DNA from: Girardia tigrina
Lineage: Eukaryota
Length of the DNA: 57,990 nt
Reading direction: 5' to 3'
Assembly: GCA_001938485.1 (NCBI GenBank)
Contig: MQRK01240826.1
Span: 1-57,990, forward strand
Position numbers and translations under genes: made by a program. The notes beneath the pieces were generated by a model. It saw nothing but the letters and a program-made list of their open reading frames with translations. It did no database searches and was not told where the DNA came from. Shown here one piece after another: positions 21,190 through 26,101 of the stretch (positions within the stretch are counted from its first letter, which is position 1; each line of letters opens with the position of its first letter).

Positions 21190-23530
21190 TGCAAACAAAG
21201 TCCGTAAGTCTCGCCGGTCGAACGACCACTCGTTGAGGCCTTGGTGTCTTTGCAAATTCGGTCTGGATCTGGTGTCGTTTGGAGACATCCGGTAACTCTT
21301 TCCATGGCTGCTCGTCTTCGTGATCTGAGCTGTCACTGAAGTTGCCTGTGTTCATCCCCACGGAGGCTACTCGCGAATCCGATAGTCCCTTCATTTGTTT
21401 TGTTTACCTGCCCTCAGGTATGCGTCTGACATGTGGCACGTGGAATGGAATCCCGTCAATCTTAACTTTATGTGATTGGCAGAATCGGCACACGATTATT
21501 CGTCTCCACTGATTCGTGCATGTTGCATTCGTCGGTTTCACGAACACGGCGTCTCTTACTCGTAGTTCCTTTGTATGCACAACTCCAAGGTTATACCCGA
21601 AAACAGCGAATTACAAAACAGCGAATTACAAAACAGCGAATGTGAAAACAGCGAATCATCAATACAGCGAATTCCAAAACATCGATTCATCAATACAGCG
21701 AATCATCAAAACAGCGATTCGTCAAAACAGCGATTCATCAATCAGCGAATTCTGCAAAACAGCGTATTAACAACATCACAATTTGAATGCAAACATTTAT
21801 TTACAACACAAACAGATTCTTCACAACAATTTTCAGTGGTCATCTTTCTTTGATTAATATAGTTTTTGATTAAATATTTAAATATGAAAAAATTAATGAA
21901 TGGGGAAATTTTAATATTACATTTTAATTTCTCATAATTTTTATTGGATAAAAAGACATTATGTAATTTTTAAAATAAACATTAATTTTTCAAAATATTA
22001 AATTTAATAAGTTAAAATCGTTTACTGAAAATATTATTAAAATTCATAATTATCAAACTTTAATTAATTAGTACTTTAATTCAATATCATTAAATTAATT
22101 TCATTAGATTCAAATAATTAATCAAATAGCATATCAATCCCGTCTGAGTAGGAGAGTCACAAATCTAAACAGCATAAAAACAACAAACTTACAACATTCA
22201 CAATTATCCCTCACACAGCGAATGAAATTTTTCATTTAAAAATGAGATTTTTGTCATTTAAATTGGAGAATATTTATATTAATAAGATATTTTTAAGATA
22301 TATTAATAAGATTTTTTAAATTAATGCTGGGCAAGTTATTAACAAAAAAAAATAAAAAGTATAATTCAATAAGTGAACGTATTTCAAAATTGCAACAGTG
22401 TTTTGGTGATTGTGAAATCGGTGTGCAGGAGTTTATTCGTGGAATTTCTTTCAGTTTAAGCACACCAATTGCATTTTGTCAAAGTATTTAAAGTTGGAAT
22501 TTCCCTAAAATAAAATTTTATATCTAATTGACTTTTTTTCTATTTGGATAGTACATCGCTGTTATGAGATTTGCTGTTATATAAATCGCTGTTTTGATGA
22601 TTCGCTGTTTTGAGAATCACTGTTATGGGATTCGCTGTTATGGGATTCGCTGTTTTCAGATTCGCTGTTATGTAACTCGCTGTTTTGTAATTCGCTGTTA
22701 TGAGGATATGTCAACTCCAATATCCTTTGGGAGCTGGTCCGCGAAATCAACTGTTAGCGGCAGTCACTGCGTTGTGCAAACACTGTGGACGCCCTAATCA
22801 CATTCGCTGATTTCAAAGTGGCGTTGTACCACTCTACCAAATCATGGCATAGGTTCTCATTTCGCGCTGTCATGCACTTGATAGTCCAATGACAGCGGTC
22901 AACAATGCCGTTTCCGCTGAGCCAATATACGCACCGAAACTGCATCTTGATTCTCATTTCTGGCTGCAATTTACCTATTTGTACTCCACGATGCGTTGTA
23001 AAGTTATTCAGCAGATTACGCGACTGCAGTGGATCCACTGAGCGACTCTGGCGGCACCTCCGTCCTCCACTTTCCCACCGCGGTATATGAGCGGCATAGA
23101 ACTTGGCAAAAATAGTCTTTTCCATGTGTGTTAGCGCTGGTTTCTTCATAACACTTGCCGCTGCTCTATCCGCCCGAAATTTTAGGTGTTAACTCTATCT
23201 GGAACCGTAAGCCTTCGAGTTAACTGATCGCGTCTATATCAATAAATATCTCGGTCCTAAATCAGACAACTTCTGATAACCCGTAGAACGCGGCCTTCAA
23301 TTCGCTTTCTACCGTACTCGATCACCATCTGCTGTAGAGCCATCAATCATCTTTCCGATTCATATACGTAGTCCAGTATTTCCGGTAGAACTACTGCGTT
23401 CGCCATGACTGTTGTGAAAAAGCCCGTGTTGACCATCACTTCATGGTTCTCCCACATATAGTGGAGAATAAATGACATGTGCACGTCAGCGTACCCAGGT
23501 CCCAACATCGTGTAGTAGTTGGGAATCAAT
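21190..23530 (-). mobile_element. Mag-clade Gypsy internal remnant (integrase and C-terminal tail), split by a MULE
   Basis: IKMQFRCVYWLSGNGIVDRCHWTIK...VEWYNAT; KVKIDGIPFHVPHVRR; RPQRVVVRPARLTDFV terminal motif. Confidence 0.75.
21589..22712 (+). mobile_element. Non-autonomous MULE (Mutator-like) element
   Basis: TSD AACTCCAA (8 bp, extendable to 9). Inverted arrays of ~15-bp AAAACAGCGAAT repeats at both ends. Internal MULE C-terminal remnant KKYNSISERISKLQQCF...QEFIRGISFSL. Confidence 0.85.
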
Positions 23531-24212
23531 ATTACTTTCTCTCCAGGTGGGTTTTTCGCTGCAAAAAAACCTTCTTAATTTTTTTTACTTTAATCTACAA
23601 AACAACCCATTTATCATATTTCTTTTACATAGACGAGATTCCGAATATTCTTGGAAAAAATATTTGTAGAAACTTATAACTCTAAAGTCAAAAGACTTTG
23701 AAAAGTGAATTATCCTCTAAAATCTATTAAATCTACTTCAATTAATTTTGTTATAATTGTTGTTGTGTATAATGTGTTATGTGTGAGTGTGTGTTGTTGT
23801 TCTTATGTTAAGTTGTGTTATGATCTTTTGTGTAGTGGGTTCAATCTTTTTTTTCTGACACCAATTTGTTACGCAAACGAGCTAATCAAACAAATATGTT
23901 TCCTTAACTTGTTTACACAACACGTGAAATTATATACTCTCGAAATTCAACGGCTCGAGTGTATATAACTAAATTATATACAAATAAATAATTAAGTTAA
24001 CGGAAAGATAAAAAAAGAAAATAGAATAATGATTACCACCAAAGTATATTTAACAAGAAAAGAGTGATGGAGGAACAAATAACAAAATAACTTTACTTCA
24101 CAGAAATCACCACCAAAAATTATAGTCGTTTACGAATAAAATCTTCAGATGTAAAAAAAACAGTTGTAGTGGGGGATAGAATCTCCGGAGTGTCGTTAAT
24201 GTATTAATTTGT

Positions 24213-25424
24213 TGTTGGATATTAGATATTTTAATTATTTGAAATATTTAATATTTGCTTTTTTGATAAATATTTTTGTAGTGAATTAAAAAAAATCAAA
24301 ATAATTTTTTTTTAATAACAAAAAAACGATCAAAAAAATAAAATTGTGAACGGAGTGATCGAAATGCAAAAAAAAATAAAAATTCAAGTGAAAAAAAATT
24401 AGCAGATTATTATCAAAAATACACTTGTTTAAATAAGCTCAAATTTACAAAACTCGAACAACAAATTCAAAAAATTGGTAAACTCTAATCATGTCCGACT
24501 GCGAAACCGAGACATTCGCCTTTCTGGCCGAAATCGCCCAGTTGATGAGTCTAATCATCAACACGTTCTACTCTAACAAAGAGATTAATTTAATTTTAAT
24601 TGTCTCAGAATTCTCAAGTTTGTTCTGTGAACGTGGGTCTCCCAAGGAACTAATTATCGATAATTATATCACATTTCATTCGGCAGAATTCAACAAACTG
24701 ATGGAAAAATGGAACGTTCGAGTCATGTATCGTGCCATCAATCGACCCAACTGCAATGGAATAATAGAAAGGAATCATAGAACAATCAAAAGAATTGCGT
24801 CCAGATCAAATATCAGCATTTTGGAAGCCTAATGGTGGTATAATAACACGCCATCTGAAGGAAAAGAAACACCAAGCTCGGCACTATATAGCTATTTGCC
24901 CATAGGGTTAGATATAATTGAAAGAAGTGAAAAGGAGCCATTCTGTGGAAATCCAGATGTTGAGAATCAATTCGTGTGGGTAAAACCGGAAAACAGTACA
25001 CCATGTACACAGCAATGGGCCAAGGGTGTTGTCGTAAAAAGAATAGATCAAAGGAAATATCTAGTAAATTGCAACGGATTTTGCGGTCCAAGACATATCG
25101 CAGACATTCGACCTAGAAAGCCTGACTTGGTTGAAAATTCCAAGTCATACTATATGAATATGGAGGAAACTGCATCACTACCAGACAATCAGACACAAGA
25201 AGAATAATCATTGAACAGTCGGCCTAGTAGAGAAAGACGAAGACCGCCTTATCTAAATGATTACATTGTGGATTCAGATTCTTCTGTGGACGAATCTGGT
25301 GGGAGTGTTGGATATTAGATATTTTAATTATTTGAAATATTTAATATTTGCTTTTTTGATAAATATTTTGTTTGAATATTATCAATTAAACATTGATTTG
25401 AAAAAATACTTTTCGCGTGTTACA
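24213..25424 (+). mobile_element. Chimeric Mag-type retroelement: partial LTR - Hsp90 mRNA 5' end - integrase 3' half - PPT - 119-bp LTR
   Basis: 24213-24279 is nearly identical to the start of the LTR at 25306. PPT TGGTGGGAG; LTR TGTTGG...GTTACA; flanks TTTGT/TTTAT. Integrase motifs [14 protein letters not shown]...[12 protein letters not shown]...WWYNNTP, WVKP, RHIADIRP and RPSRERRRPPYLNDY. Confidence 0.8.
24491..24586 (+). pseudogene. HSP90: Captured cytosolic Hsp90 N-terminal fragment (32 codons), in frame with the integrase
   Basis: [32 protein letters not shown] matches the Hsp90 signature [26 protein letters not shown]. It is preceded by a 211-nt A-rich leader. Confidence 0.93.
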
Positions 25425-26101
25425 TTTATAATCGAGTTTCGCAAAGTTCACTCCCAAAAAAATTGTTGTTGCTAACGGATTAAATCTTTGAACGAGAAAA
25501 ACGGTTGTAGTTGGTGGATAGAATCTCCGGTGTGTCGTTAAAGTATTAATTGTTTAATTGTATTTTCAAATTCTAATAATCAATGTTAATTTCGATTCAT
25601 TATTTTCCATATCTACTATATGATTTAACGTTGCCAAGCGTTAAATTCTCTCGCCCTCACAACAATAACAAAAAGAGTCTTAAAGAATAATATTGAGAAT
25701 AAAACATATAATAACAAAATCCGAATGACAACAAAACAAAAAAACCATTTGGATGTAGACAAAAAATATAGATAAAAGCTTACAAAAAAACAAATATATA
25801 TGCCACGTCACAAGACAAGGTACATCACACATACACACTAAAATCATTTTACTATTAAACGTAATTAAAGATAAAAAATGTTTACATAAAGGGAAATAAA
25901 AGCAAATGTACACACCAAAAAAATAAAATTAAATATATGAAATAAGTAGGGCACTACAATGAGGAGATCATAAAATTCCGATAATGGTGCGCTTTTATCT
26001 TCGGTACTGTGATGTAGCAATTGTGGTCACTAAAGTTACGAAACTTATAAACAATATTTATTCAATAAAATCAAAATTTAAAGATTTTGTAAAAAAATGT
26101 T

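Follow-up and report, generated by a model that had tools for sequence, protein, structure and literature searches.

Contig MQRK01240826.1 of the Girardia tigrina assembly GCA_001938485.1 contains a short LTR element in which 32 codons of Hsp90 continue in frame into an integrase, and this raises the question of how a piece of a host gene came to lie there. The window analysed here is the whole stretch of 57,990 nt. A first-pass annotation had read the arrangement as the product of one event, in which a reverse transcriptase switched from integrase RNA to Hsp90 mRNA, ran to the cap at position 24280 and jumped back into the LTR. Many features that it described are present in the sequence, including the Hsp90 codons, a TATTTAA motif at 24245-24251, the purine tract, the complete right LTR and the flanks on both sides, as well as the lack of a PBS, gag and RT on the left. 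We found, however, that the locus combines two unrelated LTR retroelements, denoted family M and family H, in a hybrid that occurs once in the assembly (Table 1).

Table 1 Features of the hybrid locus in the window.
Feature	Position	Strand	Basis
Left target-site copy, TTTGT (TTTAT with one change)	24208..24212	+	Empty paralogous sites
Family M 5′ LTR, first 64 bp	24213..24276	+	100% identity to 25306-25369
Family H LTR 5′ end, own LTR sequence starting TGTAGTGAATT, not Hsp90	24277..24461	+	At least 84 exact 5′-end matches
Probable degraded Hsp90 exon 1, running into exon 2 with the 57-nt intron missing	24462..24484	+	15/22 identities
Hsp90 exon 2 start as in the H LTR: 6 nt of UTR and codons 1-32 (codons at 24491-24586)	24485..24586	+	94% identity to the gene
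11-nt filler at the deletion junction, AATT-like repeats	24587..24597	+	Absent from intact H and intact M
Family M integrase 3′ part and purine tract (25298-25305)	24598..25305	+	About 89-96% identity to other M copies
Family M 3′ LTR, complete, 119 bp	25306..25424	+	TG...CA ends; full 119-bp LTRs in two-LTR M copies
Right target-site copy, TTTAT	25425..25429	+	Sequence; empty paralogous sites
113-codon frame: 32 Hsp90 codons, filler, integrase fragment	24491..24832	+	Single copy

The origin of the inner piece was examined by searching the assembly with positions 24270-24600, which gave 457 first-look candidates, and the best 40 were scored. All 39 other full matches among these best 40 of 457 ended at query positions 316-317 (24585/6). 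The 12 H copies examined all begin with TGTA(G/A)TG and run on past 24586 with Hsp90 codons, and window positions 24277-24586 correspond to positions 1-310 of the ~1.12-kb H LTR. The foreign piece thus starts with TGT at 24277 and not at 24280, and the LTR repeat to its left is exactly 64 bp rather than about 67 bp. LTRs related to H that carry no Hsp90 begin with the same TGTAGTGAATT, so position 24280 belongs to an LTR end and is not an Hsp90 start site. The A-rich sequence taken for an Hsp90 leader is the LTR's own 5′ part up to about 24461; it has no match to the DNA upstream of the Hsp90 gene and, from 24280 to about 24461, is unrelated to the Hsp90 5′ UTR. Two bases of the window that are not in the gene are diagnostic of family H: the base at 24494 is found in 37 of 37 H copies and the base at 24574 in 29 of 37, and neither occurs in any of 18 copies of a second Hsp90-carrying lineage, denoted S. 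The inner piece is the beginning of a second element's LTR, rather than the result of a direct switch from M integrase RNA to Hsp90 mRNA.

The H unit has TG...CA ends and is flanked by perfect 5-bp target-site duplications (TSDs) in 26 of 30 complete copies; three others match at 4 of 5 positions and one is a 3′ LTR. By exact patterns, H has at least 84 5′ ends (window included) and at least 102 3′ ends, versus 3 in the control. A PBS, which we take to match tRNA-Leu, follows the unit in 3 of 30 loci and in L175, and two loci have in common a purine-tract flank before the unit. The internal region encodes gag (DUF7041), protease, RNase H and integrase (rve), and one locus (L179) has partial H copies at both ends of one internal region. 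The protease follows gag and the RNase H, of gypsy type, precedes the integrase, which is the Ty3/gypsy order; among the few homologues that have names, some are labelled Ty3-G and Gypsy. The TG...CA ends, TSDs, PBS and gag-pol region therefore establish that H is an LTR, which mostly survives as solo LTRs. We rejected the idea that H or S is a DNA transposon with terminal inverted repeats; each has a PBS, and in neither are the two ends inverted copies of one another.

LTRs that begin with the same TGTAGTGAATT and lack Hsp90 were found in sisters of H whose internal regions are 85-91% identical. One is 83% identical to H over its first 88 nt, another is identical over its first 19 nt, and others share the H tail. 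In four sisters (L177, L185, L186 and L187), the internal regions are 80-91% identical and the LTR middles are wholly different between shared ends, which suggests that LTR interiors may be replaced frequently in this group. The sister LTRs differ across the whole middle, and the pre-capture sequence at the breakpoints, against which microsimilarity at the switch points would be judged, was not found among them. At one locus (L161) no stop interrupts the Hsp90 frame in the H tail; this was given no weight, as the tail is GC-rich with few stops in the other frames too.

The outer element belongs to family M. A search with the right LTR gave 1590 first-look candidates, of which the best 40 were scored. 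The five two-LTR M copies examined have full 119-bp LTRs, confirming the LTR length in the window, and are 3.8-4.0 kb long where both ends are whole, with TG...CA ends and the order gag-PR-RT-RNase H-IN. Three of the five have perfect 5-bp TSDs and the other two have a damaged end. The RT motif is YIDD (L106). The RNase H of M is of the RVT_3 type, with DUF7047, and does not match the RT_RNaseH families matched by H. The element had been called Mag, a label that our data do not confirm; no named Mag protein was found among 99 homologues of the family M RNase H-integrase part. M has no TGG-type PBS, and the 12 nt past its LTR form the complement of the 5′ end of tRNA-Lys(UUU) (L104:4732-4743, also L107 and L038), which suggests that M may be primed by a tRNA fragment. 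Like M, the Kuafuorterviruses/Troyka are LTR elements with the order PR-RT-RNase H-IN and an RNase H unlike that of family H. However, as far as the accessible text of PMC11673190 and PMC12440569 describes them, they have IADD/VADD/LADD motifs, CG...CG ends, 3-bp TSDs and lengths of mostly 5-6 kb, so that M, with its YIDD motif, TG...CA ends, 5-bp TSDs and shorter length, lies outside that group.

We then compared the outer ends of the locus with five empty paralogous sites of the flanking repeat. These carry the target once, as TTTAT in four sites and TTAAT in one. TTTGT and TTTAT therefore form an ordinary TSD in which one base has changed, and the outer ends stem from the regular insertion of a complete M element. 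The flanking sequence is a dispersed repeat (24115-24209 and 25458-25551), with a neighbour unit of ~80% identity just downstream. Elsewhere in the window, a tandem repeat with a 15-bp period lies at 22556-22707.

The locus very probably arose by insertion of H into the 5′ LTR of a complete M element, followed by a deletion. M LTR positions 1-64 directly abut the exact TG end of H, so the left junction would have been made by the H integrase. End-joining repair would then have removed the rest of H, the end of the M LTR, the primer site, gag, RT and the start of the integrase, at least ~3.9 kb in all, leaving the 11-nt filler where H position 310 meets the middle of the integrase. AATT-like filler of this kind is often left by end-joining repair. 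What remains in the window agrees with such a loss: the 5′ LTR stops at 64 of 119 bp, the primer site is missing, and the integrase fragment lacks both the zinc finger and the part around the first catalytic Asp, while the upstream integrase is present in intact M copies. Only one end of the H insertion is retained and its second TSD copy is lost, so the insertion is read from one end. M LTR positions 64-66 are TGT, and a 3-nt microhomology plus one extra T offers a less simple account of the left junction. Nesting does occur in this genome, since a second H insertion, in the opposite direction, lies in an M integrase (L023/L049).

The insertion of one LTR element into another, followed by deletion, is a known process. 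The locus resembles it in the exact inner TG end, the intact outer ends with their TSD, the single copy and the filler; the mechanism is the same, and the locus differs only in that the Hsp90 cargo of the inner LTR makes it resemble a gene capture. The H piece of the window is 3.6% from its nearest sampled relative (median 5.6%, n=36) and the M piece 2.7% (median 3.8%, n=18). The H piece is thus further from its relatives than the M piece, though it is expected to be younger; sampling and subfamily structure can explain this difference.

A very unlikely alternative is that a template switch joined nucleic acids of M and H during reverse transcription, possibly onto the plus-strand DNA of H, whose first bases are the TG of the LTR, and that M integrase then integrated the product once. 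Such a switch would account for two outer M ends with a TSD and for the identical 64-bp repeats, and could have used the TGT at the left junction as microhomology. The filler is also compatible with it, as untemplated fillers of 2-26 bp are described at 3 of 29 Drosophila switch junctions in the accessible text of PMC5131818. However, the switch needs two distant lineages in one particle, M with RVT_3 and DUF7047 and H with RT_RNaseH, and the primer site of M, which matches the 5′ end of tRNA-Lys, is unlike the PBS of H. In addition, normal reverse transcription gives a complete 5′ LTR, and nested insertion already occurs elsewhere in the genome, as at L049.

We also considered that the assembly had falsely joined two high-copy repeats, for which we see similarly little chance. 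The assembly is fragmented (255,254 contigs), both parts are high-copy, and a search of the 1.43-Gb assembly that allowed up to 2 mismatches finds each inner junction once, the junctions being known from the assembly only and not seen in the independent contigs listed. Yet the stretch contains no N, the left junction falls exactly at the TG end of H, and the 11-nt filler is found in neither parent, whereas a misjoin needs shared sequence. One contig each in runs X1 and X2 joins 24206 to 25424 without an insert, but this insert-free form is explained by the five paralogous sites; a contig of X1 runs across the right junction, on the side of the M 3′ LTR, and shows 0 differences.

The direct capture at this locus, in which the M reverse transcriptase switched to Hsp90 mRNA, ran to its cap at 24280 and jumped into the M LTR, is hardly credible: Hsp90 codons without the 5′ intron do lie between M sequences, but 24277-24461 is LTR sequence that the Hsp90-free sisters share and that is not found 5′ of the gene, substitutions specific to H are present in the window, and the sole acceptor-type gene copy found has a promoter and exon 1 unlike the AGTGAATT leader.

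With the locus taken as an H insertion into M followed by a deletion, it is an ordinary relic of decay. The Hsp90-integrase switch had been placed at 24586/7, and it is indeed in frame and gives a 113-aa product; however, the filler intervenes and the match to intact M begins at 24598. The frame is stopped by a private TAA at 24830, where 7 of 7 other M copies counted have TTA, and base 24831 is T in nearly all of the depth of runs X1 and X2. As the frame ends at this private stop and the front of the integrase is missing, the in-frame join is likely a chance accident without function. A Pfam search with the 113-aa fusion found no family at the cut-off, and a functional fusion has no support from these data. 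A mobile, multi-copy chimera was rejected because each junction has a single genome match.

The remaining question is how Hsp90 sequence entered the H LTR. The Hsp90 gene (L093) is 92-94% identical to H in the coding part, and its stretch L093:2591-2692 is the one that aligns with window 24485-24586. It was the single acceptor-type Hsp90 gene copy found. Repeats that resemble heat-shock elements and a TATA box precede its short exon 1, which a 57-nt GT..AG intron just 5′ of the ATG separates from exon 2; transcription is predicted to start near L093:2510. The similarity between gene and H begins exactly at the splice acceptor. When the 23 nt before this point were scored against exon 1 and against the end of the intron, exon 1 gave the higher score in all 38 H copies, the one in the window among them, and the exon 1 remnant beats shuffles at p<0.05 in 15 of these 38 only (median p 0.11). 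For window 24462-24484, p was 0.017 against 300 shuffles, and other H copies retain exon 1 better. From the exon 1 remnant and the start of similarity at the acceptor, H thus appears to have captured the part of a spliced mRNA that extends from roughly the 5′ end to codon ~193, now at LTR positions ~186-791. The proposal of an Hsp90 mRNA capture therefore holds in that an intron-less 5′ end, without the 57-nt intron, was taken up by LTR elements, but the event was older and did not happen at this locus.

Purifying selection on the captured sequence was not detected when codons 1-142 of 28 H and 10 S copies were compared with the gene; these tallies leave out copies with N or short cover. Changes present in at least half of the H copies (6 synonymous, 13 non-synonymous) did not differ from singletons (39 and 107; p=0.78), and changes of intermediate frequency numbered 21 synonymous and 30 non-synonymous (p=0.076). 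Frameshifts were found in 7 of 28 H copies. Three small runs that are possibly RNA were compared with the gene and yielded contigs of the gene itself but no long contig of the H or S type, although contigs cannot show absence; runs X3 and X9 contain M and S sequence, and the RNA status of both is a guess. In X1, a probable DNA run, one contig skips the 54-nt GT..AG intron near the 3′ end of the gene (L093:4763-4816), hinting at a further spliced Hsp90 retrocopy.

Lineage S (L163-L174 and L240-L269; e.g. L166, L173 and L242) carries a similar cargo. A spliced junction between exon 1 and exon 2 that closely matches the gene was found in 84 other places, against 0 in the control, and 20 of the 84 were examined. 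Intron loss is thus clear in S and weaker in H. The S unit is ~2.0 kb with TG...CA ends, and perfect 5-bp TSDs flank five of seven copies, with a 4/5 match in one and none in one. An exact search with its last 22 nt gives 589 matches, Hsp90-free relatives included. A PBS, presumably matching initiator tRNA-Met, follows S in 9 of 30 loci picked for a TGG, and Hsp90 lies upstream in 2 of these 9. The Hsp90 piece in S ends near codon 180-185. Relative to the gene, H and S have six frequent synonymous changes in common and no frequent non-synonymous ones, and each has its own set besides. This pattern favours separate captures, after which the gene changed, and a shared origin is the less favoured alternative.

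In the ancestor of H, the reverse transcriptase may have switched near codon 193 onto abundant spliced Hsp90 mRNA, run off at or near its cap and returned to LTR sequence. Run-off at the cap and a jump into the LTR, which had been proposed for the window, is a plausible account of this older event in H and of that in S. As the cargo lies inside the LTR, it would be copied with every insertion and left in every solo LTR, and thereby multiplied. In mechanism, the ancestral events correspond to LTR-mediated retroposition, with the cargo at an unusual site. In the accessible text of PMC5131818, a partial intron-less host mRNA joined to an LTR element replaces part of the internal ORFs between the LTRs. 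H likewise combines partial intron-less host mRNA with LTR sequence and amplifies it with the element. Unlike the cases in the accessible text of PMC5131818, the H cargo is inside the LTR and gag-pol is still present, so that solo LTRs carry it. In each of H and S, the cargo is present in at least 84 copies. The hybrid in the window is itself secondary, a relic of nesting. The families behind the locus thus have host mRNA pieces inside their LTRs.

Host-like sequence inside LTRs is known from Cassandra TRIMs, whose LTRs contain 5S rRNA sequence, and from ONSEN, whose LTR contains heat-shock elements. As in H, this sequence is amplified together with the element, and ONSEN also links to heat-shock biology. 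In contrast to both, the cargo of H is the 5′ end of a spliced protein-coding mRNA, ~570-600 nt long, and the heat-shock-element promoter of the gene is not among the captured sequence. A literature search, which lacked most subscription journals and Repbase Reports, found no report of Hsp90 or another host gene captured inside LTRs.

Most simply, Hsp90 mRNA would be abundant, would often be co-packaged, and would ride along once inside an LTR. It is unlikely that H and S took the same capped 5′ end of Hsp90 because it helps them, as a transposon counter-defence made from host mRNA. If this were true, the cargo could provide a stress-resistant leader for element RNA, a decoy of the Hsp90 N-domain, or element piRNAs that also hit Hsp90. 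According to the accessible text of PMC3683924, PMC4231750 and PMC8147803, Hsp90 is required for piRNA loading and transposon repression. As the genome holds many transposon-borne Hsp90 fragments, it could be used to test directly whether small RNAs derived from transposons act back on Hsp90. In practical terms, apparent gene captures can be nested repeats, and the well over a hundred LTR-borne Hsp90 pseudo-fragments are likely to confuse gene annotation and read mapping.

Other host fragments were observed in related contexts. A search for PF00183 gave 776 first-look candidates, and at three loci (L096:4608-6314, L097:1582-3729 and L100) Hsp90 middle-domain fragments are in frame with ubiquitin and a DUF1759 gag or a coiled-coil protein. 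Of these, L096 has DUF1759, a gag domain that would place S in BEL/Pao; only a short stretch (59 nt, 80%) connects the DNA of L096 with sequence that follows an S-type PBS. Ubiquitin is also encoded in the sequence behind the PBS at L240. At L227:468-2790 (the same as L217), an S-type TG...CA unit with a 5-bp TSD has an intron-less actin-family fragment in place of Hsp90 (Pfam Actin, 2.6e-35), which resembles Arp6.
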